64,000 bases of DNA. Source: Candidatus Marinacidobacterium sp. Lineage in GTDB: Bacteria; Acidobacteriota; Vicinamibacteria; Marinacidobacterales; Marinacidobacteraceae. The notes under the pieces are model-generated. The model was given only the letters and a program-made list of their open reading frames with translations. It was not told the DNA's origin and did no database searches. A program made the translations under genes and the position numbers. The first letter of the stretch is position 1; the number at the start of each line of letters is the position of its first letter. Location: positions 608,001 through 672,000 of the forward strand of contig OZ244852.1 in assembly GCA_965220965.1 (NCBI GenBank), read 5' to 3'. Of this stretch, positions 40,649-56,698 are shown one piece after another.

Positions 40649-42409
40649 TCACCCCTGGCTTGCGCGGCGAAGCGCGAAGGCGGATGCGGTGCGCACCGGG
40701 TCTACGCCCGGCTGGAAGATGCGTTCGGACGCCGCTTTCGCCAGGGCGATCCCGCTGGGGCGCCCGAAGTGGCCGGTGAGGGCGGTCTCGGCGCGAATCT
40801 CGACATCGTGTCCGCGCTCTTCCAGCAGGCGCGCCACCTCGGAAGCCGAGGGGGTTCTCTCGTCGAGGCTGAGCGGGCCGGTGTCGGCGTGAAACCCCGG
40901 CCCCTCCGCGGCTTCCGGCAGGGAGACCCCGCGGCCGAGAGCCCGCGCCAGCATGATCGCCACCGCCGAGATGAGCCGGCGGCCCCCCGGAGAGCCGGCG
41001 ACGACCTCGAGCTCGCCGTCCCGGCAGACCAGCGCGGGCGCCGCCGCGTGGAGCGCGCGGCGACCCGGGGCGGGGGAGATCCTGTTCCCCGGCCTCGGGT
41101 CGAACCACATCATCCCGTTGTTCAGGGGATATCCGAGCCCGGGAACCGCGAACGCCGACCCGAACCGACCGCCGAGGGTCGCGGTGAAGGCGACCGCCAT
41201 CCCGTCCTCGTCCGCGACGTTCATGTGGGTGGTGCAGTCCCCCGCCGCGGCGGCCGGCGCGGCAGTGGCGTCGTCCGGGGCGCCGGCCGGCGCGGTCTCG
41301 GCCAGGGTCGGCGCCCGCGGTCCGTCCGCGGTCATCCCCGACCGCCGGGCCGCGAGATACGCGGGCTCGAGCAGCCCCGCGAGCGGGACCGGAACGCTCT
41401 CCGGGTCGCCCAGCCACCGGAAGCGGTCGTCGAACGCGAGCCGCAGCGCCTCCGCCGCGGCGTGCAGGAAGCGCGCGGTCCCGGCCGGCGCGGGATCCGC
41501 CGCCAGCGCCGCGGGGAAAGCGTCCAGGTGCGCGAGCGCCGCCAGCAGCGTCGGGCCGCCGGAGTTCGCCGGGAGCGTGACGACCTCCCGACCGAAGGCG
41601 GTTATCCGGATCGGATCCACCTCGCGGGCCGCCTCGGCGGCGAAGTCCTCGGGGGCGAGCACGCCGCCGGCTTCCCGCACGCCGTCCGCAAGCCGGCGGG
41701 CGAGGTCTCCCCGATAGAACGGCTCCGCGCCGTCCCGCGCGAAGCGACGCAGGCTGGCGGCGAGGTCCGGCAGCCGGAGCCGGTCGCTCTCGCCGGTCGG
41801 GACGAACGGACTCCCGTCGGGGCGGGTGTAGAGCGGGAACGCTCCGGGGGAGCGGCGCAGGCGCCGATAACCGGCGGCGGCGTGGACCGCGAAGACCCAG
41901 TCGGGGACGAAACCCTCGGAGGCCAGCCGTATCGCCGGTTCTACGGTCGTCTCGAAGGGGAGGCGGCCGAACCGGGCGTGGAGCGCGGCGAGCACCGCGG
42001 GAGCGGTCGGGACAAGGGCTGAGAGCGGGCCGGTCTCCGCCCGGTCTCCCTTCGTCGGAGGGAACCCGTAGAGCCCGCCGCCTACGCCGGGCAGGGGCTC
42101 GAACATGTCCTCGCGGGTCGACGCCGGACAGCGCGCGGCGCCCTCGAGCGCGGTGATGCGGGACCCGGCGACATCGCTCCCGGGCGCGCACACCAGGGCG
42201 TAGGCCGTTCCTCCCAGGCCGCTCATCGCGGGCTCCACAACGCCCGAGGCCAGCGCCGTCGCCACCGCGGCGTCCGCGGCGTTTCCGCCGGCGGCCAGGG
42301 TCTCCGCCCCGACCCGCGCTGCGATCCGGGACATCGCGGTGACGGCGCCGGCGTTCCCCCGGACCCGGAAACGTCCCGGCCGGGGAACGGCCTCGCGCAG
42401 GGTCAGCAC
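40649..42409 (-). CDS. ggt: Gamma-glutamyltransferase family (Ntn hydrolase)
   Basis: GGNAADAAVA, EPAMSGLGG, FYRG, autoprocessing CTTH, LNNGM, GSPGG. Confidence 0.88.
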   Translation of the reverse strand: MLTLREAVPRPGRFRVRGNAGAVTAMSRIAARVGAETLAAGGNAADAAVATALASGVVEPAMSGLGGTAYALVCAPGSDVAGSRITALEGAARCPASTREDMFEPLPGVGGGLYGFPPTKGDRAETGPLSALVPTAPAVLAALHARFGRLPFETTVEPAIRLASEGFVPDWVFAVHAAAGYRRLRRSPGAFPLYTRPDGSPFVPTGESDRLRLPDLAASLRRFARDGAEPFYRGDLARRLADGVREAGGVLAPEDFAAEAAREVDPIRITAFGREVVTLPANSGGPTLLAALAHLDAFPAALAADPAPAGTARFLHAAAEALRLAFDDRFRWLGDPESVPVPLAGLLEPAYLAARRSGMTADGPRAPTLAETAPAGAPDDATAAPAAAAGDCTTHMNVADEDGMAVAFTATLGGRFGSAFAVPGLGYPLNNGMMWFDPRPGNRISPAPGRRALHAAAPALVCRDGELEVVAGSPGGRRLISAVAIMLARALGRGVSLPEAAEGPGFHADTGPLSLDERTPSASEVARLLEERGHDVEIRAETALTGHFGRPSGIALAKAASERIFQPGVDPVRTASAFALRRASQG

Positions 42410-42459: not shown

Positions 42460-43434
42460 TCATGCAAGGACATCCGCGAGCAGCCCCGCTTCGGCGTTCC
42501 CTCCGCACAGCGGCAGCACGAGCCGCCGGTCGGCGAAGCGGTCCCGGTGCTCCAGCGCGGCGGCCACCCCGGCGGCGCCGGCGGGCTCCACGACGAGACC
42601 GAGCGTCCGGTGCAGCAGGCGAACCGCCTCCCGAAGCGAGTCCTCGCGCACCGCGAGGACTTCGTCGACCACCGAGCGCATGACCTCGACCGCCTCCGGG
42701 ACCGGGACCCGCACCGCGATCCCGTCGGCGATCGTCGCGGGCGCATCGGCCGCCGCCGAAGCGTCCCCGGTTTCGAACGCCCGTCGCATGACCGGCGCCG
42801 TCCCGGCGACGACCCCGATCACCCGAACGTCGGGACGGTATGCGCGGCAGTAGAGCCCCATGCCGCCGATCAGGGCGCCGTTCCCGACCGGAGAGACGAG
42901 CAGGTCGCCGGCGTCCGCCTCGAAGCACTCGAGCGCGATCGTTCCCGCGCCCTCGGTGATCTCCGGCTCCCGGCCGTCCTCCACGAACGCGGCGCCGGTC
43001 TCGTCGGCGAAGCCGCGCGCCGCCTCCTTGGCGGCGTCGAAGTCGTCGCCCTCGAGGCGGACCTCGGCCCCCAGCCGGCGCATCGCCGCGACCTTGTCCG
43101 GATTGGCCCGGACCGAAGAGAACACCGTGATCGGGATGGCGGCCCGGCGGGCGGCGAAGGCGAGCCCCTGTCCGAAGTTGCCGGCCGACCCGGTGACCCA
43201 GCCGGCCCGGCCGCCCGAGGCGTCCCGCTTCGCTTCCGCGCCGCGGCGGGCGCCGAACCAGCAAGCGCCCCGGGCCTTGAAGCTCCGGATGGGATTCAGC
43301 GTCTCGACCTTTACGAAGGCCCGGGCGCCGAGCGCTTCGGAGAGGTCCGCCGAGACGAACTGCGGGGTGTCGCGGAACTCCGCGGGAATTGCGCCGTGGG
43401 CCGGCTCGATCCGGTCGGCGCGGGGAGGGTCCAT
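42460..43434 (-). CDS. PLP-dependent threonine/serine dehydratase-like (PALP family) enzyme
   Basis: KVETLNPIRSFKARGA (PLP lysine), SAGNFGQG, PVGNGALIGG, TIADG, VEPAGA, CGGN. Confidence 0.88.
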   Translation of the reverse strand: MDPPRADRIEPAHGAIPAEFRDTPQFVSADLSEALGARAFVKVETLNPIRSFKARGACWFGARRGAEAKRDASGGRAGWVTGSAGNFGQGLAFAARRAAIPITVFSSVRANPDKVAAMRRLGAEVRLEGDDFDAAKEAARGFADETGAAFVEDGREPEITEGAGTIALECFEADAGDLLVSPVGNGALIGGMGLYCRAYRPDVRVIGVVAGTAPVMRRAFETGDASAAADAPATIADGIAVRVPVPEAVEVMRSVVDEVLAVREDSLREAVRLLHRTLGLVVEPAGAAGVAAALEHRDRFADRRLVLPLCGGNAEAGLLADVLA

Positions 43435-43547
43435 GGGCGCCCGGATGGTAGTCGGGCGGCCGCGCCGCCCGGACTGGTCGGCTCCGCATACACTCCGTCG
43501 GGTTCGCGGTGGCCGCCTGGCCGCCGGAGGCCATCAGGAGAACGAGC

Positions 43548-44696
43548 ATGAAGCGAGAGACGACACCGGACGCGCGCGGGGTGACCCGGCGGCAATTCGT
43601 GAAGGCGGGGGCGGCGGGAGCGGCGGCCCTCTCGACCGGGATCGCCCGGCCGGCGCGCGGCGCTCCGGCCGTCCAGAGTTCCGGGCCCCGGCCGGTCGTC
43701 ATTTCGTCCGGCAACGGGAACCGCTACAGGAACGGCGGCGACGAGGTCGTCGTCGAGCGCGCCTTCCGGATGATGACCGAGGGCGAGGACATCCTCGAGA
43801 GCCTGATCGCCGGCGTGAACATCGTCGAGCTCGACCCCGAGGACGCGAGCGTGGGCTACGGCGGCCTTCCGAACGCCGACGGCGTCGTCCAGCTCGACTC
43901 CTGCTGCATGCACGGTCCGCTGCGGCGGGCCGGAGGGGTGGCCGGGCTCGAAGGGGTCCGCACTCCGTCGAACGTGGCCCACCATGTCCTCCAGATCACC
44001 GACCATCACCTGCTGGTGGGGAAGGGCGCCCAGGTCTTCGCCCGCAACATGGGTCTCAAGATCGAGGACGACCTCAACTCCGACCGGTCCCGGGCGATGT
44101 GGCTCGAGTGGAAGCGGCGGATCGACCCGCGGCACTATCTCGACCCGAAGACGCGCGCCGACGCCGGTCACGCGGCGGGGCTCTCGATGGTCCGGGACGG
44201 GCTGATCCCCGAAGAGGACTACTACGGGACGATCAACTGCGACGGCCTCAACGCGAACGGCGACCTCGCGGGCGTCACCACCACCAGCGGGCTGGCGTGG
44301 AAGATCCCGGGACGGGTGGGAGACTCGCCCATCCTCGGCGCCGGCCTGTATGTGGACAACGAAGTCGGCGCGGCCGGCTCGACGGGCCGGGGCGAGGCGA
44401 ACCTCTACGGCCTGTGCTCGTACCTGGTCGTGGAAGAGATGCGCCGCGGAGCGCACCCGAAGGACGCCGCGATGACGGCGCTCGCCCGGGTCAAGGAGAA
44501 CACCGTCGAAAAGCGCCTCCTGAACAGCCGCGGCCTTCCGGCTTTCGGGCTGTCCTTCTACGTCCTGAACAAGGCGGGCGAGTACGCCGGCGTCTCGATG
44601 TACACCACCGAGCGCTCCACCTTCGCGGTCTGCACCGAGAACGGGCCGGAGTCGGTTCCCATGGAGCCGTACCTGGAGGGTTCCGCCTCCGACTGA
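43548..44696 (+). CDS. Type-2 asparaginase / glycosylasparaginase family Ntn hydrolase, Tat-exported
   Basis: Tat motif TRRQFVK, AGGAG SD, SVGYGGLPN, QLDS, nucleophile GTIN, TTSG...KIPGRVGDSP, TGRGE. Confidence 0.88.
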   Translation: MKRETTPDARGVTRRQFVKAGAAGAAALSTGIARPARGAPAVQSSGPRPVVISSGNGNRYRNGGDEVVVERAFRMMTEGEDILESLIAGVNIVELDPEDASVGYGGLPNADGVVQLDSCCMHGPLRRAGGVAGLEGVRTPSNVAHHVLQITDHHLLVGKGAQVFARNMGLKIEDDLNSDRSRAMWLEWKRRIDPRHYLDPKTRADAGHAAGLSMVRDGLIPEEDYYGTINCDGLNANGDLAGVTTTSGLAWKIPGRVGDSPILGAGLYVDNEVGAAGSTGRGEANLYGLCSYLVVEEMRRGAHPKDAAMTALARVKENTVEKRLLNSRGLPAFGLSFYVLNKAGEYAGVSMYTTERSTFAVCTENGPESVPMEPYLEGSASD

Positions 44697-44697
44697 T

Positions 44698-45069
44698 TTG
44701 GGTCACTCTCGTTTCGGAAAGGGGCGCCGCGGCCGCTTCCCGGCGGTCGGCGCCCTGATCGTCGGGCTGTTCGTCGGCGGCGTTGCGTTCGCGCAGCCCC
44801 CGAAAGCGGAAGAGGAAGAGGAGCCGCTCCCGCCTCCTCCGTCGATCTTCGATCTCTCCTACGAGGTGAGGAACCCGAGGGAACTGGGTCCCAAGGACTT
44901 CCAGAACCGCTGGCGGCGCATCTGGGGAGCGCTCGGGATGCGCGCCCACTACTACCCGTCACAGCTCAGCGGACCGGAGAACTGGCCCCCGCACCTCTAC
45001 GGCGGCGGGATGAACTACAGCATCTGGCGGGACACAGTCACCGGCTGGCATCAGGGCACACCGCCTTGA
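44698..45069 (+). CDS. Small hypothetical exported protein
   Basis: TTG start just after the upstream stop, signal peptide ending AFA, acidic/Pro linker, Trp/Tyr-rich tail. Fills the gap in a co-directional run. Confidence 0.55.
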   Translation: MGHSRFGKGRRGRFPAVGALIVGLFVGGVAFAQPPKAEEEEEPLPPPPSIFDLSYEVRNPRELGPKDFQNRWRRIWGALGMRAHYYPSQLSGPENWPPHLYGGGMNYSIWRDTVTGWHQGTPP

Positions 45070-45117: not shown

Positions 45118-46422
45118 TTGCGGGTCCTGAGCTTCACCGCCGGCGCGGGGGAGATGCTCTGCGGGAGCTGCATCCGCGACAACACCCTCGCCCGCGAGCT
45201 GGGACGCCGCGGGCACGAGGTCCGGCTCGCGCCGCTCTACCAGCGCAGCCGGACGGACGAGGAGAGCGTCTCCGACCCGTCGGTGCGCTTCGGCGGCGTC
45301 TCGGTGTTCCTGCAGCACGCCGCCCCCCTGTTCGGGCGGCTGGGCTTCGTGAACGCGTTCCTCGATTCGGGCCCGGTCGTGCGCCTCGCCGGGCGCTTCT
45401 CCGGTTCGACCGAGGCGAGTCGCCTCGGCCCGCTGACCGTGACCACGCTGCTGGCGGAGCGCGGGCCGGCGCGACGCGCCGTCGAGTCGCTCATGGCCTC
45501 GCTGTCCGGAGAGCGGTTCGATCTCGTCATGCTGCCGAACTCGTTGCTCCTCGGACTGGTCGCGCCCCTCAGGGCGGCCCTCGGCGCCCCGGTGATCGTC
45601 ACCTTCTCGGGCGAGGATCTCTTCCTCTCGCAGCTTCCCGAGGAGGACCGGAACGCGGCGCTCGACCTCATGCGGGAGGCGGCCCGCGAGGTGGACCTCT
45701 TCGTGGGCGTCACCGCTCACCACGCGAAGGACATGGCGCGCCGCCTCGGGGCGCCCGAGTCCCGGGTTGCGGTGGTCCGCCTGGGGGTCGACCCGGCCGG
45801 CTTCCCCGACGCGCCGAAGCCGGCCCCGGCGGATCCGCCCGACGAGGTCACGATCGCGTATCTCTCCCGCATCGCCCCCGAGAAGGGCCTCGACCGGTTG
45901 GCGGACGCCGTCGCCTCGGTCAGCCGGGCCGGGGGGCCGCGGCTCCGCGTCCGCGCCGCCGGGTGGATGGCGCGGAGCCAGCGCGGCTACCTGGCCGGCG
46001 TGCGCGCCCGTTTCGCGTCCGAGGCGCCGGGCGTCCGGTTCGACTACGAGGGGAGCCCGGACCGCGAGGGGAAGCTGCGGCTGCTGCGCGAGGCGGATGT
46101 GTTCGCGTTGCCCGCTGTCTTCCCCGAGCCCAAGGGCATTCCCCCGATCGAGGCGATGATGGCGGGAACCCCGGTCGTGCTGCCCGCGACCGGGGCCTAC
46201 CCGGACCTGATCCGCCGCACCGGCGGCGGCGTCCTGGCCCGCAGCGCCGATCCCGGGGACTTCGCGGCGGCGCTCGGGGACCTGCTGCGGGATCCGGAGG
46301 AACGCTCCCGCCTCGGCGCGGAAGGATTCCGGCGGGTGCGCGAGGAGCACTCCGCCCACCGCATGGCGGAAGACATGGAGGCCGCCTGGCGCGAGGCCGT
46401 CCGCATCCGCCGCGCCGCCTGA
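45118..46422 (+). CDS. Glycosyltransferase family 4 (GT-B) with N-terminal CGSC motif
   Basis: TAGAGEMLCGSCIRDN, RIAPEKG, EPKGIPPIEA (E-x7-E) motifs. Confidence 0.88.
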   Translation: MRVLSFTAGAGEMLCGSCIRDNTLARELGRRGHEVRLAPLYQRSRTDEESVSDPSVRFGGVSVFLQHAAPLFGRLGFVNAFLDSGPVVRLAGRFSGSTEASRLGPLTVTTLLAERGPARRAVESLMASLSGERFDLVMLPNSLLLGLVAPLRAALGAPVIVTFSGEDLFLSQLPEEDRNAALDLMREAAREVDLFVGVTAHHAKDMARRLGAPESRVAVVRLGVDPAGFPDAPKPAPADPPDEVTIAYLSRIAPEKGLDRLADAVASVSRAGGPRLRVRAAGWMARSQRGYLAGVRARFASEAPGVRFDYEGSPDREGKLRLLREADVFALPAVFPEPKGIPPIEAMMAGTPVVLPATGAYPDLIRRTGGGVLARSADPGDFAAALGDLLRDPEERSRLGAEGFRRVREEHSAHRMAEDMEAAWREAVRIRRAA

Positions 46423-46434
46423 CAACCTGATTTC

Positions 46435-47541
46435 ATGACCGATCCGCACGAATCCCGTCCTCATCCCGACGCGGTCGCATCCGCCCGCGCCGGGCTCGAC
46501 AGCCACGTCCGCGACATCGTCCGCTGGCACTTCTCGGAAGACACCGGCTGCTCCTTCTGGCTCGACTTTCGCGAGCGGCTGGACTTCGATCCGCTCACCG
46601 ACATCCGGGGTTTCGACGACCTCCGGCGCTTTCCTCCCTTCGAGGACGACTGGCTCCGGGGCGGGCCGGTCCGGCGGTGGGTCCCGAAGCCCTGGCAGGA
46701 CCGGCCCCTCTTCGTCTTCGAGACCGGGGGGACGACCGGCATTCCCAAGAGCCGCGTCGGCATCACCGACTTTCGCGAGGACTACGAGCTGTTCAGCGAG
46801 CTGCTTCCCGACGAGCACTTTCCCCGCGGCTCGAACTGGCTCATGCTCGGTCCCACCGGACCGCGCCGTCTTCGGCTCTCGGTCGAACACCTCGCCCAGC
46901 ACCGCGGCGGGATCGCGTTCTGCCTGGACCTCGACCCCCGCTGGGTCATCAAGCTGATCCGGAAGAACTGGCTGGAGCATCTCCAGGAGTACCAGCGCCA
47001 CTGCATCGACCAGGCGCTCACGATCCTCTCGGCGGGCCATGACATCCAGTGCCTGTTCACGACGCCCAAGCTGCTCGAGGCGCTCTGCCTGGCGCTCGAG
47101 GACCGCGGAAGCAGCCTCCGGGAGACGGGGATCCGCGGCATCTTTTCCGGGGGCACGGAGTTCACCCCCCAGTGGACGCGGTTCGCGGTCGAGGAACTGC
47201 TCGACGGGGTCTACCTCCAGCCCACCTACGGCAACACGCTCATGGGCCTCGCGCCCGCCCGTCCCCCGACGCCGGCCGACGGCTACACGATCGCCTATTA
47301 CCCGCCGATGCCACGGGCCGTGCTCGAGGTGGTCGACCCCGACAGCGGCGAGCTGGTGGACTACGGCGGGACCGGGCGCGTGCGCCTCACGACCCTGACC
47401 CGCGAGTTCTTCGTTCCCGGCTTTCTCGAGCGCGACGAGGGCGAACGCGAACGACCCTGGGGGCCCTACGCCTGGGACGGCGTCAGCGGGGTGCGCCCGT
47501 TCGGCCAGCTCCCCGGCGGCACGACCGTCGGGGTCTACTGA
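46435..47541 (+). CDS. EhpF/GriC-like atypical ANL adenylating enzyme lacking the C-terminal lid domain
   Basis: 368 aa; WHFSEDTGCSFW, ETGGTTGIPK (A3 loop), GPTGP, YGNT (A5-like), ERDEG, C-terminal GVY. Confidence 0.75.
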   Translation: MTDPHESRPHPDAVASARAGLDSHVRDIVRWHFSEDTGCSFWLDFRERLDFDPLTDIRGFDDLRRFPPFEDDWLRGGPVRRWVPKPWQDRPLFVFETGGTTGIPKSRVGITDFREDYELFSELLPDEHFPRGSNWLMLGPTGPRRLRLSVEHLAQHRGGIAFCLDLDPRWVIKLIRKNWLEHLQEYQRHCIDQALTILSAGHDIQCLFTTPKLLEALCLALEDRGSSLRETGIRGIFSGGTEFTPQWTRFAVEELLDGVYLQPTYGNTLMGLAPARPPTPADGYTIAYYPPMPRAVLEVVDPDSGELVDYGGTGRVRLTTLTREFFVPGFLERDEGERERPWGPYAWDGVSGVRPFGQLPGGTTVGVY

Positions 47542-47562
47542 GCCTCGGCGGCCCGCCCCGGA

Positions 47563-47605
47563 AGTCCTCCCGCACCCCGGTTCGGGACCCCGGTTCGGGA
47601 GGACT
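47563..47605. terminator. Hairpin between convergent genes, with an internal direct repeat
   Basis: AGTCCTCCCG...CGGGAGGACT 10-bp inverted repeat; ACCCCGGTTCGGG occurs twice within it. Confidence 0.45.
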
Positions 47606-47614
47606 CGGCCGGCC

Positions 47615-49666
47615 TCAGTTGGTTTCGGACGCCGTGGTGCGGTAGCGCTCGAACCAGGCGAGGATGTTGGCGATCTTGCCGATGAGCTGGCTCGGCCGCC
47701 GGCTCATGTCGTGCGAAGCCCCCGGAAGCCGGACCACGCCGGTGTCGATCCGCCGCATCTTGAGCGCGTGGAAGAGCTGGTACGACTCGGACAGGGGTGT
47801 CCTCAGGTCCGCCGACCCGGTCACGATCAGGGTGGGCGTCGTGATGTTCTCCGCCAGCGAGAGCGGCGAGAACTTCCAGTAGGGGGCCGGGTCCTCCCAT
47901 GGGAGGCCCTCGTAGCGGCTGTGGAAGTAGCCGTACCAGTTGTCGGCGGTGAGCGTCTTGCTGATCCAGTTGACCACCGGCTTCTGGGAGACCGCGGCGC
48001 GGAACCGGTCCGTCTTGCCGACGATCCAGGCGGTCAGGATGCCGCCCGCGCTCCCGCCGGTCACGAAGAGGTTGTCCGGGTCGATGTAGCCGCGGGCGAT
48101 CACCGCGTCCACCCCCGAGATGACGTCGTCGTAGTCCTCGCCCGGGTAGTTGTGGTAGAGCAGATCCCCGAACTCCTCGCCGTAGCTGGTGCTGCCCCGG
48201 GGGTTCGGGTAGAGGACCACGTATCCGGCGGCCGCCATCAGCTGCATCTCCGCCGAGAAGCGGTCCCCGTAGTTCGAGATCGGCCCGCCGTGGATTTCGA
48301 GGATGAGCGGGTAGCGACGGGCGGGATCGAAGTCGGGCGGCTTCACGATCCATCCGTGGATCGGGTGGCCGTCGAACGATGAATCCCACCAGATCTCCTC
48401 GACTTCGCCGAGCGTTCGCCCGGAGAGGAGGTCCTCGTTGAGCGCGGTGATCCTCCGGACCTCTCCCCCGGGTCGCCCGAGCGCGACCTCGCCGGGCTGA
48501 TCGGGGCGGGTCTGGTTCATCGCGAACGAGCCGTCGTTCGCGACCGAGAACGATCCGCCCCCGTAGGGCCGGCCGTAGGAGGCGCCTCCGAGGTCGCCCG
48601 CGAGGACGCTGGTCTCCCCGTCGAGGGTGACGAACCCGACCTTCGAGTTGCCGAGGTCGTCGTACTGGAAGTAGACGCCGCTCCCGTCGCGCGCCCACAC
48701 CGGGGCCGACACGCTCCGGTCGAGGCCCGCCGTCAGCACCCGCCGCCCGCTGCCGTCGAGGTTCATCACCTCGAGGCGGCGCACCTGGTAGGTGCGCACG
48801 CGGTCCTCGTTGCTGATGAAGGCCACGCTCTGTCCGTCAGGGGAGACGGCCGGGCTCTGGTCCGGTCCGTTGCGATCGGTCAGCGCGCGGATCTCCCCGC
48901 CGGCCGCCGGCGCGATGTAGAGCTCGGAGTTGCGGTAGTCGTAGACCCAGTCGGGCTTGCGGTTCGAGGAGAACACCAGGTTCTGGCTGTCCGGCGTCCA
49001 GGCGGCCGGGCTGGCGTGATGGAAGTCCCCGGAAGTCACCTGGACCGGGGTGCCCCCTTCGGCCGACACCACGAAGAGGTGCTGGAACCCGAAATCCAGG
49101 TAACCGACGCCGTCCTGCCGGTTCCGGAAACGGTCCTCGAGGATCGGCGGGTCGGCCCACTCGGCGCCCGGCGGCGGCCTCGGCGGCGCCGTCAGGCTCG
49201 GCGCCGGATGGGGAACGAGCATGTTGAACGCGATGTGGCGCCCGTCGGGCGACCAGCGGATCGCGCGCGGGGACTCGAGGAGCTGGGTGAGCGTGGTGGT
49301 GTCTCCGGTGTCCATCCAGCGCAGTTGAATCTGGCCGTCAGCGATGTAGGCCAGCCGGTCGCCGCCCGGGGACCAGCGGGGGGTCGTTCCGGCGCCGAGG
49401 CGGCGGTGGTCCCCTCCGTCGGCGTTCACGACCCACAGTTCGCGCCGCTGCCGGTCGCGCTGGATGTCCATCGACGTGCGGACATAGACCACGCGTTCGC
49501 CGTCGGGAGAGATCTGCGGGTCGGCCGCGAATTCGAGCTGGAACACGTCCATCGGCTCGAAATGGCCCGAGGCCTGGCCGGCCGTCTCGGCCGGATGCAA
49601 CAGCAGGGTCAGCGCCGCCGCGAGCATCCCGGCGGAGAAGGGCGACAGGCGAGAGAACGTAGACAT
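47615..49666 (-). CDS. S9 family exported peptidase (acylaminoacyl/dipeptidyl aminopeptidase-like)
   Basis: AGGAG SD, signal peptide, PD40-like propeller repeats (ISPDG, WSPDG), IHGGP, NPRGS, GGSAGG, D and H of the catalytic triad. Confidence 0.9.
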   Translation of the reverse strand: MSTFSRLSPFSAGMLAAALTLLLHPAETAGQASGHFEPMDVFQLEFAADPQISPDGERVVYVRTSMDIQRDRQRRELWVVNADGGDHRRLGAGTTPRWSPGGDRLAYIADGQIQLRWMDTGDTTTLTQLLESPRAIRWSPDGRHIAFNMLVPHPAPSLTAPPRPPPGAEWADPPILEDRFRNRQDGVGYLDFGFQHLFVVSAEGGTPVQVTSGDFHHASPAAWTPDSQNLVFSSNRKPDWVYDYRNSELYIAPAAGGEIRALTDRNGPDQSPAVSPDGQSVAFISNEDRVRTYQVRRLEVMNLDGSGRRVLTAGLDRSVSAPVWARDGSGVYFQYDDLGNSKVGFVTLDGETSVLAGDLGGASYGRPYGGGSFSVANDGSFAMNQTRPDQPGEVALGRPGGEVRRITALNEDLLSGRTLGEVEEIWWDSSFDGHPIHGWIVKPPDFDPARRYPLILEIHGGPISNYGDRFSAEMQLMAAAGYVVLYPNPRGSTSYGEEFGDLLYHNYPGEDYDDVISGVDAVIARGYIDPDNLFVTGGSAGGILTAWIVGKTDRFRAAVSQKPVVNWISKTLTADNWYGYFHSRYEGLPWEDPAPYWKFSPLSLAENITTPTLIVTGSADLRTPLSESYQLFHALKMRRIDTGVVRLPGASHDMSRRPSQLIGKIANILAWFERYRTTASETN

Positions 49667-49803
49667 CGGATGACTCCTGGGCGGGCGGGTCGGGACGGGC
49701 GAGTCCCGAAGCGGCGTTTCCGGTTCGCAGATCATGACCGAACCGGGTCAGGGAGATCCCGGCCGCACCCGGAACCGCCGGCGCTCGGTACACTGGCGCC
49801 ACC

Positions 49804-51225
49804 GTGATTCGCGTTCCCGTCCTTCGCTGGGGCCAGCCCTACCAGAGCCTCGAAACCAACACCGTCAGTCACTTCCTGAGCGGTGAAGCGGTCGCTGAAG
49901 TCGACCAGGCGCCCGGGGGGATCGTCCGCCGCGACCTGCGGAAGGCGGGTCGGGCGCGCCAGATCCTCCGCGAGATCCCGAGCCGGGAGATCCTCGGGAT
50001 GATGAAGGAGGCGGCCCGCCTCTACCAGGAGGAGGAGCTCCCTCTGGGCGATGGCCGGCAGTCCCCCTCGGACTTCGTGCGGGCGCAGTCGGCGACGACC
50101 GGCCTGCCCGAGTCCATGTGCCGGGCCAACATGGAGAAGAACCGGTTCGTCCTCGAGCGGATGGACCAGGTCCTCGACTCGCTGACGCGCGGGCTCGACC
50201 TCGACATCCTCGCCAGCGGCCACGGGGTCGAGGACCGGGGCGTGCCGGTGTCCTACCAGGCGCAGACCCCGGTCCTCGGCTGCGTCCTGCCGTCCAACTC
50301 TCCGGGAGTCCACACGCTCTGGCTGCCGGTCATCCCGATGCGGATCGGGCTGGTGCTGAAGCCCGGCCCGGAGGAGCCCTGGACGCCCTACCGGATGGCG
50401 GAGGCGTTCTTCGCCGCCGGCGTTCCCCGCGAGGCCATCGCGGTCTATCCGGGAGGCGCCGATGTGGGCGCCGCCGTCGTCGAGGCCGCCCCAAAGAGCC
50501 TCATCTTCGGAAGCCGCGCCACCGTGGAGCGCTACCGCTCGAATCCCGGCGTCCGGGTGCATGGCCCCGGCTTCTCCAAGATCCTGCTGGGCGACGATGT
50601 TGTGGACGAATGGGAGAAGCACCTCGACCTGCTGGTGGACAGCGTCTTCCAGAACAGCGGCCGTAGCTGCATTTCCTGTTCGGGGATCTGGGCTTCACGC
50701 CACACCGAGGAGATCGCCGAGGCGCTCGCCGAGCGGCTGGGGCCGGTGGCCCCGCGGCCTCCCGAGGACCCGGAGAGCGCGCTCGCGGCGTTCACCGTGC
50801 CCGGCGTGGCCGACGCCATCAATCAGGACATCGACGACCGGGTCGCGGCCGGCGGCGCCGAGGAGGTGACGGCGCCGCTCCGGGGCGGCCCGCGGCTCGT
50901 CAAGGAGGGGAACGCGGCGTGGCTGCGTCCCACCGTCGTCCACTGCGACGGCCCGGAGCGGCAGGCGGCGAACGTGGAATACATGTTCCCCTTCGCCTCG
51001 GTGGTCCGTTGCCCGCAGGAGAAGATGCTCGACCACATCGGGGACACCCTGGTGGCCACCGCGATCACCGGGGACAGCGGTTTTCGCGAGGCGCTCCTCG
51101 AGTCCCCGTCGGTCGACCGCCTGAATCTCGGACCCATCCCCACGAACCGCATCAACTGGCTGCAGCCGCACGAGGGAAACATCCTCGATGTCCTCTACCG
51201 CGCCCGCGCCTTCCAGAGCGCCTGA
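49804..51225 (+). CDS. Aldehyde dehydrogenase-fold protein, probable acyl/aryl-carboxylate reductase (EhpG/GriD/LuxC-like)
   Basis: LPSNSP (oxyanion Asn), LKPG, IFGS, catalytic Cys region NSGRSCISCS, EYMFP. The canonical ELGG motif is replaced by HGPGFSK. Confidence 0.78.
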   Translation: MIRVPVLRWGQPYQSLETNTVSHFLSGEAVAEVDQAPGGIVRRDLRKAGRARQILREIPSREILGMMKEAARLYQEEELPLGDGRQSPSDFVRAQSATTGLPESMCRANMEKNRFVLERMDQVLDSLTRGLDLDILASGHGVEDRGVPVSYQAQTPVLGCVLPSNSPGVHTLWLPVIPMRIGLVLKPGPEEPWTPYRMAEAFFAAGVPREAIAVYPGGADVGAAVVEAAPKSLIFGSRATVERYRSNPGVRVHGPGFSKILLGDDVVDEWEKHLDLLVDSVFQNSGRSCISCSGIWASRHTEEIAEALAERLGPVAPRPPEDPESALAAFTVPGVADAINQDIDDRVAAGGAEEVTAPLRGGPRLVKEGNAAWLRPTVVHCDGPERQAANVEYMFPFASVVRCPQEKMLDHIGDTLVATAITGDSGFREALLESPSVDRLNLGPIPTNRINWLQPHEGNILDVLYRARAFQSA

Positions 51226-51937
51226 GGGCGCCGCGCTGCGGGAGGCCGGCGAGACGGCTTCGGCGAGCGAGGGCCTGATCGTTCGCGGGCTCGTCAAGGA
51301 CTACGCCGGGCCCGGAGGCCTGCTGCGGGTGCTCGACGGCGTCGACCTCGAGGCCGGTCCCGGGGAGGCGCTCTCGATCATGGGAGCGTCGGGCTGCGGC
51401 AAGAGCACGCTCCTCTTCCTGCTGGGGGCGATCGAGTCGCCCTCCGACGGGGAGGTGCGTCTCGCCGGGGTGGACCCTCACGAACTGGATCCTGACGAGC
51501 AGGCCCGGTTCCGGCGCGACGAGGTGGGGTTCGTGTTCCAGGACCACTGCCTCCTTCCCCAGTGCACCGCGCTCGAGAACGTGCTCACCCCGACTCTTCC
51601 CGACCCGCGGCCCGGCGACCGGGACCGCGCGGTGGAGCTCCTCGACCGGGTGGGGCTGTCGGCGCGCCGCGACCATCTGCCGGCGGAGCTCTCCGGGGGC
51701 GAGAAACAGCGGGTCGCGATCGCGCGCGCGCTCGTGCGGCGACCGGGCCTCCTGCTGTGCGACGAGCCCACCGGGAACCTCGACGGGGAGGCGGCGGCCC
51801 GCGTCGCCGAACTGCTGGTGGATCGCGGCGCGGTGGGCGCGGGATGCATCGTGGTTCTGGTGACCCATGATCCGGGCCTGGGCGCCCGCTTCGACCGGGG
51901 TTACCGCATGGAGCGCGGCCGGCTCAAAGCCGCCTGA
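51188..51937 (+). CDS. ABC transporter ATP-binding protein (LolD/MacB-like)
   Basis: GASGCGKST, GFVFQ, LSGGEKQRVAIARA, CDEPTGNLD, VTHD. Confidence 0.93.
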   Translation: MSSTAPAPSRAPEGAALREAGETASASEGLIVRGLVKDYAGPGGLLRVLDGVDLEAGPGEALSIMGASGCGKSTLLFLLGAIESPSDGEVRLAGVDPHELDPDEQARFRRDEVGFVFQDHCLLPQCTALENVLTPTLPDPRPGDRDRAVELLDRVGLSARRDHLPAELSGGEKQRVAIARALVRRPGLLLCDEPTGNLDGEAAARVAELLVDRGAVGAGCIVVLVTHDPGLGARFDRGYRMERGRLKAA

Positions 51938-51949
51938 GGGACGGCGCGG

Positions 51950-54900
51950 ATGGCCCGGGGTTCCGCAGACGTCGTCCGGCCGGCCCTGCGGGGTCTGATC
52001 CACTACCGGCGCGGGCACCTCCTCGTCGCCGCCGCCACCGCGGTTGCGGCGGCAGTTCTCGTCGGAGCGCTCGCGGTGGGCGATTCGGTCCGGGGCAGCC
52101 TCCGCGCCGTCTTCACCGAGCGGCTGGGAGAGGCCGACTTCGCGGTCCTCCCGCGCCATCCGTTCTCCGACGATCCGGCGACCGGGCTCGCGGCGCGGTT
52201 GGCGTCGCAACTCGAGCGGGAAGCTCCCGGATGGTTCGAGTCGCCGGCGCCGGCGCTGCGGCTCATGGGCGCGGTGTTTCTCCCGGACGGAGCTCCGGAG
52301 GCCGTCACCGTGTTCGGCGTCGACGACCGATATTTCGCGCTTCACCGGGTTCCGGGGCCGGTCTCGCCGGGCGCCGTCCGGGTGAGCCCCGGGCTGGCGC
52401 TTCAGGGCATCGAGCCCGGCGACTCGCTGCTGATCCGGGTGGACGGCGTCTCCGGGATCGCCTCGGCGTCGTTCTTCGGAGACAAGGGCGCCTCCGCGCT
52501 CACGTTCCGCCGCACGGTGGAGGCCTGGGCCGAGCCCCGTCCCGGCCCCGCCTCGGGCGGGTTCTCGCTGTTCCCGGTCCAGGGACCGGTGCGAGCCGTC
52601 TTTCTGCCGCTCGGCGAGCTTCGCGCGCTCCTCGACGAGGACTTCGGGGGGCCGCCCCGGGCCAACGCGCTCCTATTCCGGGCCGCCGGCGCGGCTGGCG
52701 CCGGGGACGAGGGAGAGGCGGTGCTGGCCGCCGCCCTCGATGCGACCGCCTCGCTGGACGACCGCGGGCTCGGACTGCGCCGGGGCGAGTCCGGCGACCT
52801 GGTGCTGGAGAGCCGGAGCCTCGCGCTCGCCGACCACGAGGTGGACGGGGCGGTCCGCGCCGCCGAGGCCCGGGGACTTCGGGCAGCGCCGGTGCTTACC
52901 TGGCTCGCGACCTCGATGGCGGCGAACGGACGCGAGACTCCGTATTCGCTGGTGGCCGGGCTTCCCGAGGGCTGGTTCCCTCCGGACGACGACCCCGGCG
53001 ATGTTCTGCTCCCCGGGCCCTGGCTCACCGAGGATCTCGACCTAACCGGGGGCGACGCGATCGAGGTGTCCTACCTTGTTTGGGACGAGGCGGGACGGTT
53101 CGAGGCCGCCGCCGCCTCGCTGCCGGTGGGGCCGGGGGTCGCCCTCGACGGGGTGTTCCGCGATACCACCCTGGCCCCGGAGTTGCCCGGCGTCACCGAC
53201 TCGGCGCGGATGGGCGACTGGGACCCGCCGTTTCCGCTGGACCTGAGCCGGATCCGGGACCGGGACGAAGAGTACTGGGACGACTTCGGCGCGCTTCCGA
53301 AGGCGTTCGTGCCCTACGCCACCGCGCGGCGCCTCTGGGAGATGCGACAGGGGAGCGCAACATCTGTCAGGTTCCGGAGCGAGGGGAGCGCGTCTCTGGA
53401 TCCCCTCCCGCTCGAAGAATCGCTCGTGGCGGAGCTTCCCGCCGCCGACTTCGGGCTCGCTCCGGTCGCGGTGCGGGCGCAGGGGCTCGAGGCCTCCCGG
53501 GGCGCGACCGACTTCGGGATCTATTTCCTCTACTTCTCGTGGTTCCTGCTGGTCTCGGCGTTCGTTCTCATCGCCCTGCTGTTCCGGCTGGGGATCGAGC
53601 GGCGGCTGCGGGAGATCGGCCTCCTGCTCGCCTGCGGCTGGCCGCCGAAGCGGGTCTCGCGGACGCTCCTCCTCGAGTCCCTGATCGTCGCCACTGTCGG
53701 CGTCGTGGTGGGTTCGGCGCTCGGCCTTCTCTATGCCCGGGGCATGGTGGGGCTTCTCTCCGGCGTGTGGGGGGGCGCGGTGACCGGGACGCTCGCCGCC
53801 TCCGACGGAGGGGCGGAGGCGCCGCTTCAGCTCTTCGTGAGCTGGGGTTCGGTCACCATGGGGGCGCTGGGCGCGCTCGAGATGGCCCTGATCGCCGCCT
53901 GGTGGACCACCCGGCGGCTCGTAAGACTCCCCCCGCGACCCCTCCTCGCCGGGAGCCTGCCGACCAGCGACGCGGCCGGCCCGCTCCCGGCGCCCGATCC
54001 CGGACGCCGCGCGCGTCGGCTGGCCGTCGGTCTCGCGGTCGTCGGCGTCGGCCTCGCGGGGGCGGCCGCGGCCGGGATCGTTCCGGAGACGGGCGGTTTC
54101 TTCGGAGCGGGGTCGGCGCTGCTCGCGGCCGGGCTCGCCGCCGGCTGGCGGCGCCTGGTGGCCGCCGGGGCCGGAGGCGCGCTCGCCGGGTTGCGGGAAC
54201 TCGCTTTCCGGGCGGCCGGTTTCCGCCCGGGCCGAAGTCTCGCCGCCATGGCGCTGGTGGCCTTCGCGGCCTTCACCCTGGTCGCGGTGGAGTCGTTCCG
54301 CAAGCAGTCGGGCGCCGGTGGTCTGCCCGAAGGCGTCGGCGGGGTCCTTGCGCTCACCGAGACGGTGCTGGGGGCGCCGTGGGACCCGACGACCGCCGAG
54401 GGGCAGGAGGCGCTCAACCTGCCGGCCGGCCTCGAAGGGTTCCGGGTGAGCCCGCTTCGTCTCGCCGGCCACGAGGACGCCAGTTGTCTCAATCTCTACC
54501 GCCCGGCGCGGCCGCGGGTGCTGGGCGTCCCCCCGACGCTGCGCGAGGAGAACCGGTTCCCGTTCGCGGCGCACATGGGCGAGACCGCGGCGGAGACCGC
54601 GAATCCCTGGCGCCTCCTCGAGCGCGCGCGGGCGCCCTCGGACCCCATCCCGGTGATCGGCGACCAGAACTCGATGACGTACGTCCTCAAGTGGCCGGTC
54701 GGCGAGGAGCGTTCCTACCCCATCGGGGACGGGGGCGCTCCGGTCCGGTTGCGGCTGGTGGCGACGCTTTGGGACAGCCTCTTCCAGGGGGAGCTGCTGA
54801 TGGCGGAGGAGGATCTGCTGGACTCGCTGCCGGTCGAGGACGGCTACCGCATGTTCCTGGTGGACCGGCCCGGCGAGGTCCCGGTCGGCGCCGAGGCGCT

Positions 54901-55393
54901 CGCTGCGGCGGAGTCCGCAGCCACGGCGCTCCTCGCCGATGCGCTCTCGGACTACGGAGCGGCCTCCACCGCCGCCCGCGCCCGGCTCGAGAGCTTCCAC
55001 CAGGTGGAGAACACTTACCTCTCCACCTTCCAGGCGCTCGGCGGCCTCGGGCTCCTGCTCGGAACGCTGGGGCTCGGCGCGGTGCTCCTGCGGAACGCCG
55101 ACGAGCGGAAGAAGGAGTGGGCGCTGCTCGCGGCGGCGGGCTACCGGCGGCGCGACTTCGCTTCGCTCGGTTTCTGGGAGAACGCGCTCCTCCTCCTCGC
55201 CGGCGTCGGGGTCGGCGCCGGCGCGGCCATCGTCTCGGTCCTCCCGGTGCTCGGCCAGCGGGGCGCCGGCGGGAGTCTCGGGCTCCTCGCCGTTCTCCTC
55301 TCCGGGATCGTGGCGTTCGGCCTGCTCACCGGCGCGCTCGCCGCCCGCCGCGCCGCCACCCGACCCATCCTCCCGGCGCTCCGCGCCGAGTGA
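51950..55393 (+). CDS. Large tandem FtsX/MacB-type ABC permease (1147 aa)
   Basis: N-terminal TM then GDSVRGSL, two large extracytoplasmic domains, and two FtsX-like TM blocks (ERRLREIGLL.A.G; ERKKEWALL.A.G). Confidence 0.88.
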   Translation: MARGSADVVRPALRGLIHYRRGHLLVAAATAVAAAVLVGALAVGDSVRGSLRAVFTERLGEADFAVLPRHPFSDDPATGLAARLASQLEREAPGWFESPAPALRLMGAVFLPDGAPEAVTVFGVDDRYFALHRVPGPVSPGAVRVSPGLALQGIEPGDSLLIRVDGVSGIASASFFGDKGASALTFRRTVEAWAEPRPGPASGGFSLFPVQGPVRAVFLPLGELRALLDEDFGGPPRANALLFRAAGAAGAGDEGEAVLAAALDATASLDDRGLGLRRGESGDLVLESRSLALADHEVDGAVRAAEARGLRAAPVLTWLATSMAANGRETPYSLVAGLPEGWFPPDDDPGDVLLPGPWLTEDLDLTGGDAIEVSYLVWDEAGRFEAAAASLPVGPGVALDGVFRDTTLAPELPGVTDSARMGDWDPPFPLDLSRIRDRDEEYWDDFGALPKAFVPYATARRLWEMRQGSATSVRFRSEGSASLDPLPLEESLVAELPAADFGLAPVAVRAQGLEASRGATDFGIYFLYFSWFLLVSAFVLIALLFRLGIERRLREIGLLLACGWPPKRVSRTLLLESLIVATVGVVVGSALGLLYARGMVGLLSGVWGGAVTGTLAASDGGAEAPLQLFVSWGSVTMGALGALEMALIAAWWTTRRLVRLPPRPLLAGSLPTSDAAGPLPAPDPGRRARRLAVGLAVVGVGLAGAAAAGIVPETGGFFGAGSALLAAGLAAGWRRLVAAGAGGALAGLRELAFRAAGFRPGRSLAAMALVAFAAFTLVAVESFRKQSGAGGLPEGVGGVLALTETVLGAPWDPTTAEGQEALNLPAGLEGFRVSPLRLAGHEDASCLNLYRPARPRVLGVPPTLREENRFPFAAHMGETAAETANPWRLLERARAPSDPIPVIGDQNSMTYVLKWPVGEERSYPIGDGGAPVRLRLVATLWDSLFQGELLMAEEDLLDSLPVEDGYRMFLVDRPGEVPVGAEALAAAESAATALLADALSDYGAASTAARARLESFHQVENTYLSTFQALGGLGLLLGTLGLGAVLLRNADERKKEWALLAAAGYRRRDFASLGFWENALLLLAGVGVGAGAAIVSVLPVLGQRGAGGSLGLLAVLLSGIVAFGLLTGALAARRAATRPILPALRAE

Positions 55394-55432: not shown

Positions 55433-56698
55433 ATGGCATATCCCGCGCCGTCCCGCAGCCGGTCCGAAGTGGACCGCGCGGGCGAGGTTCTGGCCGGGCC
55501 CAGGGACGAGGGGTGCGCTGCGGCGCGTCAGGTGGCCAGCGACTGGCGGGCCGCGCACGCCTACCCGCTGCTCGCGCTCCGGAAGCTTCTGGCGCGGAGG
55601 GCGCGCGAGGCCGACCCCGACGGCGACAGCCTGGTGGCGCTGCGACGTAACGGCCTGTTGGCGAAGTCCCGTGCAGCGCCGAGAGCGGTGAGGCGCCCGT
55701 CCGACAAGGCGCGTGAGCGAGGAATATCGGGAATATTCCGAGCGAAACGGAACGATGAGCGCCCCGAAGGGGCGCGGTTCGGGCGGGATGCATCGCCGCT
55801 CGAACGCCGCGTGACTTTGTCAATAGGCCGTTGAGCGACTGGTCTCGGTGGAGGCCAAGCTCCGGCGGTTCTCCGGGATGCGGCTCTCCCGGATGCAGGA
55901 CCTCGGCGGCTGCCGCGCCATCCTCTCCGATGTGGGGAGCGTGGACCGGCTGGTCCGGATCTACGCGGACCGGCGGCAGAGCCACGATCTGGTCAGGAGC
56001 GACGACTACATCGCGGAACCCAAGGCCGATGGATACCGGGGCGTCCACCTGGTCTACCGCTACCGCTCGCGGAGCGACGCCGGCGCCGTCTGGAACGGCC
56101 TGCGGATCGAGGTGCAGATGCGCTCGAGGCTCCAGCACGCCTGGGCCGCCGCGGTCGAGACCGTGGATGCGATCCGGGGTACGCGGCTCAAACGGGGGGG
56201 CCGGGCAACGGCCGCTGGGACCGGTTCTTCGCGCTCATGGGCAGCGTCCTGGCGATCCGGGAGAGGAGGCCAGCGGTTCCGGGAACGCCCACCGCCCTCG
56301 CGGAACTCCGGGACGAGGCGACGACGCTCGAACGGGAGCTGGGGGTCATGTCCACGCTGCTGACGCTGGGCGTGGCGGTTCACCGCGTGGATCGGGTTGC
56401 TGGACTCATCAGGGACTTTCGCCGGGTGGCCGCCTGGTACCTGCTGACAGTCGATTCCCGGACCGCCACGACCTCGGTCCGCGGCTATGGCGCGACGGCG
56501 TTCGAGGACGCGCGCGCCGAGTACCTTCGCCGCGAGGAACAGCATCGGGACAGCCCCGGGATTCAGGTCTGCCTGGTCTCCACGACCTCCGCCGAGGCGC
56601 TGCGAAGGGCCTATCCCAACTACCATCTCAATTCGCAGGACTTCCTGGGCGCGGTCGCCGAGCTGTACGAGCGGGGATCCCGGAGGGTTGGCCCGTGA
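55433..56698 (+). pseudogene. RelA/SpoT-domain (small alarmone synthetase-like) gene interrupted by a MITE-like insertion and a frameshift
   Basis: Three fragments: N-terminus (SRSEVDRAG...WRAAHAYPL), core (KLRRF...MQDLGGCR, DDYIAEPKADGYRGVHL, IEVQMRSRLQHAWA..VE) and C-terminus (WDRFFALMG...LRRAYPNY). Frame changes at the insertion and at a G7 run (56194-56200). Confidence 0.82.
55651..55830. mobile_element. 180-bp MITE-like non-autonomous element
   Basis: Terminal inverted repeats CGGCCTGTTGGCGAAGTC / GACTTTGTCAATAGGCCG (15/18), flanks GTAA and TTGA (each one change from TTAA). Removing the element plus one 4-bp flank restores the host reading frame. Confidence 0.8.

Follow-up and report, generated by a model that had tools for sequence, protein, structure and literature searches.

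A stretch of 64,000 nucleotides from Candidatus Marinacidobacterium sp. (assembly GCA_965220965.1, contig OZ244852.1, positions 608,001 to 672,000; hereafter the window, to which coordinates refer unless the contig is named) carries five plus-strand genes that raise the question of what a glycosyltransferase, a short adenylating enzyme, an aldehyde dehydrogenase (ALDH)-fold protein and a large ATP-binding cassette (ABC) transporter might do together. They encode a GT-B type glycosyltransferase of family 4 (GT4; 45118-46422; PF00534/PF13439), an EhpF-type short adenylating enzyme of 368 aa (adenylase; 46435-47541; Pfam AMP-binding), an EhpG-type ALDH-fold protein predicted to be an acyl reductase (49804-51225; PF00171), a LolD/YbbA-like ABC ATPase (51188-51937) and a single-chain type VII ABC permease of 1147 aa (51950-55393), and they are split by an S9 peptidase gene on the minus strand (47615-49735; PF00326). 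The original prediction, made from the sequence alone, had described this arrangement; all six open reading frames (ORFs) lie where it placed them, and Pfam confirms their families, with two FtsX stretches in the permease, ABC_tran in the ATPase and Aldedh in the ALDH-fold protein. The permease, GT4 and a family of secreted propellers very probably serve one process. With less than even confidence, we favour the reading that the pathway produces a small glycosylated molecule, which the ABC system then brings to the propellers to act as their cofactor or ligand.

The connection between these genes rests on their co-occurrence in samples of 301 Acidobacteriota and 96 Planctomycetota genomes. The Acidobacteriota were searched for propellers with a profile (A1) built from 19 secreted propellers of cluster loci and the source genome (cut-off E ≤ 1e-40), and for the permease and the other pathway genes with the window proteins (permease cut-off E ≤ 1e-30). 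Permease and propellers were found in the identical 79 of the 301 Acidobacteriota genomes. Within these 79, GT4 is present in 78, the adenylase in 74 (a count that includes G219, with merely a 38% relative) and a radical S-adenosylmethionine (SAM) enzyme in 61, and neither GT4 nor the radical SAM enzyme occurs in any genome outside them. Most Acidobacteriota adenylases show 59-86% identity, and a 33% relative in G055 is accompanied by no other system gene. Every positive genome has a best propeller match of E ≤ 3.4e-88 and 4 or 5 matches among the 5 candidates scored, and five fully scored negatives from families of mixed content reach at most 62 bits; such families split alike for permease and propellers (6/10 in f9, 1/2 in f11, 1/2 in f13 and 1/8 in f30). 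Among the Planctomycetota, propellers were found in 26 genomes, the permease in 25 of these 26 and a close-type adenylase in 17, all inside the same set, while five genomes with only distant EhpF-like genes (34-37%) have neither permease nor propellers. The co-occurrence also holds for unlinked genes, as in G073, where GT4 lies 1.8 Mb from the rest.

The propellers that would be the clients of this process are secreted, PQQ (pyrroloquinoline quinone)-like, eight-bladed β-propellers in multiple copies, full counts giving 11 in the source genome (at a stricter cut-off) and 23-34 in four others. The pathway genes are mostly single-copy as against 11 to 34 propellers in the five genomes counted, and a single-copy pathway with many clients is the pattern of cofactor pathways. 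The PQQ and mycofactocin systems likewise combine a single-copy pathway, an uptake system, many co-occurring clients and the PQQ-like propeller fold; they differ in that no precursor peptide and no pqq- or mft-type gene was recognised in the present clusters, whose clients have no invariant active-site residue of the quinoprotein type. Only structural Trp, Gly and Pro residues and an N-terminal WPx(W/F)RGP motif, placed after the signal peptide, are common to 67 propeller domains; no polar residue is invariant among these domains, and NCBIfam quinoprotein models stay far under cut-off for the two propellers scanned. In the source genome, a dedicated propeller lies with an iron-type alcohol dehydrogenase (Fe-ADH) and two large propellers at contig positions 1161564-1167798. 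The longer contig stretch 1161564-1179168 contains, besides the Fe-ADH and the dedicated propeller, seven more PQQ-like propellers, one of them fused to ankyrin repeats, and it is also interrupted by an S9 peptidase.

The five genes of the window are linked beyond chance. In a survey of 80 loci of other genomes, many of which are short contigs, 73 have ALDH no more than 10 kb away from the adenylase, 28 have GT4 and 13 have the permease at such a distance, and the order GT4-ANL-ALDH-ABC-permease is kept in all 13 loci with the permease nearby. The conserved linkage that the original prediction had expected is therefore seen, and linkage together with nested co-occurrence also upholds its joining of GT4 and the type VII ABC transporter in one pathway. 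In the window, 12 bp separate GT4 from the adenylase and again the ATPase from the permease, and the ALDH gene overlaps the longest ORF of the ATPase; the GC content (0.70-0.74) is flat over the region and the same as in the remaining window, and thus gives no sign of an island. As a self-contained module the five genes hold up only in part: they are linked, but they are a fragment of a larger system, whose most constant partners are the secreted propellers. Elsewhere, in Acidobacteriota and Planctomycetota, the five sit within a cluster of about 17 genes, which includes two large secreted propellers, a DUF3311 protein with a sodium symporter, the adenylase, ALDH, Fe-ADH and the dedicated propeller of 365 aa, then a HemN-like radical SAM enzyme, a TonB receptor in some cases, a flavin halogenase-like enzyme and GT4, and further a 4HBT thioesterase, a 167-aa membrane protein, the ATPase and the permease. 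Genes in the compared loci were called by an ORF scorer that trims starts and misses some genes, which makes absence from a gene map a weak observation.

What reaction the adenylase and its ALDH-fold partner carry out is suggested by their relatives. The adenylase matches EhpF (PDB 3L2K and 3HGU; a 366-aa chain) at E 1.6e-42 over residues 21-360 of 368, the next-best PDB match reaching only E 0.0015, and it has no Pfam match to AMP-binding_C, in keeping with its earlier description as a short ANL enzyme without the lid. It is present in 30 of 31 relatives, 183 of its 368 positions are at least 90% conserved among 101 homologues, and its closest relatives (76-84% identity) come from records labelled Acidobacteria or Candidatus Marinacidobacterium. 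In a tree of 56 sequences (FastTree, midpoint-rooted, no clade test), 23 system-linked adenylases and two unplaced database proteins form one clade (SH 0.974), separate from the EhpF-like gene of a phenazine cluster and from proteins annotated as 'arylcarboxylate reductase', which match at 34-38%. The ALDH-fold protein keeps N165 and C289 (nt 50668-50670) in 79 of 79 homologues and has HGPG where classical ALDHs have the general-base glutamate of ELGG (alignment to 3B4W). It aligns over its full length with an EhpG-like protein of the phenazine cluster (24% identity, E 3e-25), and it matches the partner protein in a Streptomyces aminobenzoate cluster (27%, E 9e-30). The two proteins can be assigned with good confidence as a predicted two-protein carboxylate reductase, a role that had been proposed beforehand and that the EhpF and EhpG-like matches favour. 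The mechanistic likeness to LuxE/LuxC that had also been drawn finds no echo in these comparisons: no LuxE or LuxC model matched the window proteins at E ≤ 0.01 in Pfam or NCBIfam, and this family is not the closest match. The original prediction had itself named an ordinary NAD+-dependent aldehyde oxidiser, next to an ANL-like protein that adenylates no acid, as a finding that would overturn it. The Pfam Aldedh match and the importers of the cluster, which would fit nutrient uptake, agree with such an oxidiser in a catabolic or chance neighbourhood; it is nevertheless very improbable, given the missing glutamate, scores below 32 bits for all named ALDH models of NCBIfam, the biosynthetic clusters in which the closest relatives tested are found, and the linkage to the adenylase.

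The nearest known pair is EhpF/EhpG of the D-alanylgriseoluteic acid cluster of Pantoea agglomerans, which also consists of a short adenylase, homologous over nearly the full length, adjoining an ALDH-fold protein without the glutamate. The present adenylases differ by forming their own clade, by having RR instead of HI or HV at positions 144-145 and by their partners, namely GT4, the ABC transporter and propellers. EhpF-O are reported to convert phenazine-1,6-dicarboxylate to the antibiotic (PMC3175449). No phz core gene and no griI, griH or griF gene is found among the annotated conserved neighbour families, no separate genome-wide search having been made. EhpF-like domains also occur elsewhere, fused to a class III aminotransferase in Streptomyces, C-terminally in a 725-aa protein, and before a type I polyketide synthase. 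Distant EhpF-like genes are accompanied by ALDH, an acyl-CoA ligase and a condensation-domain protein in G219 (L190:9667-12161), and by MMPL, SCP2 and a fatty-acyl-reductase-like gene in G360 (L192:9454-10659). An ehp-like phenazine biosynthesis cluster is present on an Escherichia coli plasmid (NZ_CP076707.1).

The acid that would be reduced is probably aromatic rather than fatty. In the adenylase, the sequence GPRRLR contains R144-R145 (nt 46864-46869), conserved in 23 of 23 system-linked adenylases, in the place where EhpF-like proteins have GPHI/V; five relatives from other contexts have H followed by I or V. If these residues line the substrate pocket, as we assume from the motif anatomy of ANL enzymes, the arginine pair suggests a second anionic group on the substrate, for example a halophenolate. 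The composition of the cluster points the same way, and its Fe-ADH, symporter, halogenase, radical SAM enzyme and thioesterase, sometimes joined by a chorismate lyase and a CoA ligase, indicate that the substrate is probably a hydroxybenzoate derivative. A chorismate-lyase-like gene occurs in four planctomycete clusters (Atlas scores 0.94-0.98, without a Pfam match), and a PaaK-like CoA ligase joins the cluster in six genomes. The halogenase-like enzyme is closest to aryl-carrier halogenases of the ChlB4/PltA type, with WxWxIP in 25 of 25 sequences and the aligned Lys in most, a family assignment to be read with the fact that the non-halogenating flavoproteins QhpG and LodB also score. PQQ itself was considered as the substrate and was dropped once genes for chorismate lyase, CoA ligase and thioesterase appeared in complete clusters, and is kept as a possibility.

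An aryl substrate is also supported by analogy with GriC/GriD of grixazone biosynthesis in Streptomyces griseus, which was compared by description. GriC is reported to adenylate 3-amino-4-hydroxybenzoate and GriD to reduce it to the aldehyde (PMC10179220), and the same course from acid through acyl-AMP to aldehyde is proposed here, with the difference that Fe-ADH comes next in the present system. A halogenated hydroxybenzoate derivative does exist in Planctomycetota (10.1101/723874, PMC12078418). For 3,5-dibromo-p-anisic acid, the first of these sources proposes a chorismate lyase and a brominase, BaaB, that is about 44% similar to Bmp5 (10.1101/723874). The baaAB genes of Planctomycetales strain 10988 resemble the present planctomycete clusters in that a chorismate-lyase-like gene adjoins one for a flavin halogenase; in the parts covered there is no reductase, GT4 or ABC gene, and the comparison is again by description. 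The baa cluster was rejected as the same locus, the halogenase family being different (Bmp5-like BaaB as against the ChlB4/PltA type).

The reductase pair is a replaceable part of the system, the core of which consists of GT4, the ABC ATPase, the permease and the dedicated propeller. Among genomes that have the permease without the adenylase, a search for ALDH in five Acidobacteriota and five Planctomycetota found it in one of the former and none of the latter, and GT4 was found in 4 of the 5 adenylase-negative planctomycetes tested. Nine adenylase-negative genomes of the two phyla (G284, G230, G116, G394, G374, G411, G348, G342 and G340) carry, whole or in part, an NADH iron-sulfur (FeS)-flavoprotein module beside the core, in which a NuoEF-like and NfnA/GltD-like FeS flavoprotein is accompanied by a membrane FeS protein of NapH type, a ferredoxin, an NHL protein and more propellers. 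In G341, only a ferredoxin-like gene stands beside GT4, while the short contig of G264 still carries ALDH; the assemblies of G124 and G345 are in too many pieces to be typed, and the GT4 loci of G425 were left out. One reducing module thus appears to replace another, which would suit a system that builds no cofactor and instead brings reducing power to the periplasm. In such a redox shuttle, an aryl acid/alcohol pair would cycle: the symporter would import the acid, ATP and NAD(P)H would be spent on its reduction, the small membrane protein would export the alcohol, the propellers would re-oxidise it, and conserved cysteines in GT4, the permease and the dedicated propeller would form a thiol relay. 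The shuttle would also account for the importer and a possible exporter staying with the reductase. It is considered rather unlikely, however, for it leaves unexplained a core glycosyltransferase with intact sugar-nucleotide residues, the 67 propeller domains share no conserved redox site, and to our knowledge no ABC mechanotransducer acts as an electron carrier.

In GT4, R251, K256, E337 and E345 are conserved in at least 90% of 56 homologues. The CxxC that had been noticed in the window protein, where it reads CGSC near the N-terminus (C15/C18, nt 45160-45171), proved to be general, being found in 83 of 84 GT4 ORFs with overlapping loci counted twice; the sole miss is cut by the edge of its locus, and among 40 patterns inspected, 38 are of the N-terminal GxGxMxCGSCxxDN type. 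The ATPase scores 201 bits with TIGR02211 and 185 bits with the YbbA model NF007879, both under cut-off. The permease model (predicted local distance difference test, pLDDT, 88; predicted template modelling score, pTM, 0.86) has its best fold match in YbbP of E. coli (9GE7; E 9e-16, TM-score 0.32-0.35, 15% identity). An FtsX-type permease fold, large periplasmic domains and a LolD-like ATPase, taken from sequence and model, place the transporter in type VII (MacB/LolCDE/YbbAP). With E. coli YbbAP-TesA it shares the single-chain double-FtsX permease, but it has 1147 residues instead of about 800 and an invariant periplasmic cysteine, and its likely partner is a propeller instead of a hydrolase, no tesA-like hydrolase being among the annotated conserved neighbours of the transporter. 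YbbAP is described as extracting hydrophobic molecules and presenting them to periplasmic TesA (PMC12646458). By analogy, the present system might combine the action of GriC/GriD or EhpF/EhpG with that of an extractor resembling YbbAP, and its distribution is like that of a cofactor system. As far as the sequence families tested can tell, the assembled system appears to fit none of them as a whole, its parts coming from known families.

The conserved cysteines common to GT4, the permease and the dedicated propeller bear on how cargo might be passed on. S845-C846 in the second periplasmic domain of the permease (nt 54482-54487) is invariant in 47 of 47 sequences and belongs to a conserved loop whose position is not resolved in the model (pLDDT < 50 at 844-846), and C208-D209 of the dedicated propeller is found in 29 of 29. 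A predicted complex of the permease periplasmic domains (62-498 and 797-1008) with the dedicated propeller scored 0.03, with a mark of 0.32, and weighs neither way. Such cysteines would also serve a covalent modification or anchoring system, in which an activated aryl or glycosyl group is handed over by the cysteines of permease and dedicated propeller and ends up on the conserved motif at the N-terminus of the clients, as in exosortase/PEP-CTERM sorting, and the WPx(W/F)RGP shared by the clients would offer a target. This is quite improbable, as the motif sits at what we take to be the structural N-terminal arm of PQQ-type propellers, and formation of the alcohol removes the acyl activation needed for transfer.

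GT4 together with a YbbP/LolCE-type extractor is also what would be expected of a glycolipid, an envelope modification or a secreted halogenated aryl glycoside, in which case the propellers would be carriers, binding proteins or fellow travellers. A lipid-like cargo is suggested by a squalene-hopene-cyclase-like gene with an intact DADD motif, which is beside the core in four genomes without the adenylase, three of which also have a DUF116-polyprenyl synthase (DDxxD); a prenyltransferase-fold gene was seen as well. The aryl glycoside has a precedent of sorts, since a planctomycete is reported to make 3,5-dibromo-p-anisic acid (10.1101/723874). The plain glycolipid, one of the products that the original prediction had named, is weakened by the probably aromatic nature of the acid, and the reading with passive propellers as a whole is retained as an unlikely alternative. 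It leaves unexplained the dozens of unlinked propeller paralogues that occur only with the permease, and a highly conserved, mostly single-copy gene set across phyla is unusual for a secondary metabolite.

The favoured delivery of a glycosylated molecule to the propellers could proceed as follows. An aryl acid, most likely a halogenated and/or methylated 4-hydroxybenzoate, would be made by way of the chorismate lyase, CoA ligase, flavin halogenase, HemN-like radical SAM enzyme and 4HBT thioesterase, or alternatively imported by the TonB receptor and the DUF3311 protein with its sodium symporter. The EhpF-like enzyme would adenylate the acid, the EhpG-like protein would hold it as a Cys289 thioester and reduce it to the aldehyde, Fe-ADH would convert the aldehyde to the alcohol, and GT4 would attach a sugar. 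The YbbAP-like ABC system would then raise the product to the periplasm and pass it to the dedicated cysteine-bearing propeller, which would hand it on to the many paralogues as a cofactor or bound ligand. Identities, motifs, linkage and co-occurrence were computed, while the direction of the reaction, the substrate, the order of the steps, the cargo and its use by the propellers are what we infer. In its fullest form, the proposal would be a cofactor or protein-maturation system, in which a glycosylated halogenated aryl compound, exported via a cysteine relay and loaded on propellers, makes them active periplasmic enzymes, and in which a terpenoid or a direct FeS-redox route replaces the aryl compound in other lineages; this joint claim is possible, though on the doubtful side.

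Several observations weigh against the delivery of a cofactor or ligand. No invariant catalytic or cofactor-binding residue was found across the 67 propeller domains, which argues against one common active site, and the client fold is closest to that of the non-enzymatic BamB. The adenylase is missing from 9 of the 26 planctomycete genomes with the system, so that an aryl alcohol cannot be the universal cargo, and no more than 4 of the cluster loci examined have the chorismate lyase. The propellers behind profile A1 all come from genomes with the system, and related genomes are not independent; the phylum-wide searches scored 2-5 candidates per genome, with 5 of 222 negatives rescored fully. 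One of the five, G210, has a distant permease-like gene (117 bits, without the SCL motif) and no propellers. Orthologues of the radical SAM enzyme, halogenase and thioesterase were not found in the source genome, which is 94% complete.

For this last point, comparison with relatives suggests an explanation. The radical SAM gene is present in 18 of 18 family relatives and adjoins the halogenase gene in 4 of the 4 relatives examined, 3 of which also have an acyl-CoA-ligase-like gene. In the relative G001, this cassette lies between two genes whose orthologues in the source genome are about 350 bp apart (contig ~587900-588300, outside the window), which points to loss of the radical SAM/halogenase/ligase cassette at the syntenic site, and with the genome at 94% completeness a copy may also lie in unassembled DNA. 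The symporter (near contig 1745100) is kept, and the source organism may thus scavenge the modified acid; a membrane protein of the 167-aa type is found at contig 573378.

No paper on the cluster or on the function of its propellers was found among titles and the beginnings of abstracts, subscription papers and bioRxiv supplements being outside reach. The secreted PQQ-like propeller family is present in roughly one in four of the Acidobacteriota and Planctomycetota genomes sampled, and the pathway would provide it with a testable role. Since its presence follows that of one permease and one GT4 nearly perfectly, deleting a single gene could put the whole family to the test. Should the propellers prove to be loaded with a molecule, bacteria that are abundant in soil and sea would be seen to use a new route of cofactor supply or protein maturation, and an enzyme type so far associated with the making of antibiotics and pigments would gain a role on a housekeeping scale.

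The S9 peptidase gene is a local, lineage-specific insert outside the pathway, as it occurs in 1 of the 80 loci, at a distance, and has no match in the 4-kb loci around the adenylase of 14 close relatives; several S9 paralogues are found elsewhere in the source genome. Further neighbours were judged incidental on account of their restriction to particular lineages: asparaginase-2 and MsrA, the phosphodiesterase/sulfotransferase genes and a PQQ dehydrogenase-Rieske pair confined to loci labelled Thermoanaerobaculia, and MnmG and SNF2 confined to those labelled Pirellulales. The asparaginase-2 (an N-terminal nucleophile hydrolase with a twin-arginine signal; 43509-45069, plus strand) precedes GT4 in 17 of 81 loci, in this lineage only, and is often accompanied there by a 120-aa ORF without an assigned family. 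In the Thermoanaerobaculia-labelled loci, a conserved block beside the adenylase includes a sulfotransferase-like gene, two phosphodiesterase/nucleotide pyrophosphatase genes, a membrane protein, GT2 and a thioesterase (e.g. L057:11091-18186), and the PQQ dehydrogenase-Rieske pair sits between ALDH and the adenylase. Farther upstream in the window, a Spondin_N-domain protein with a long Pro-rich linker (39759-40547, minus strand) is encoded beside a gamma-glutamyltranspeptidase (40649-42409, minus) and a PALP enzyme (42460-43434, minus). Downstream of the permease, a RelA/SpoT-domain protein seems to be split into overlapping ORFs in different frames (55848-56363, PF04607, and 56237-56698, both plus), possibly by a frameshift or as a decaying gene.

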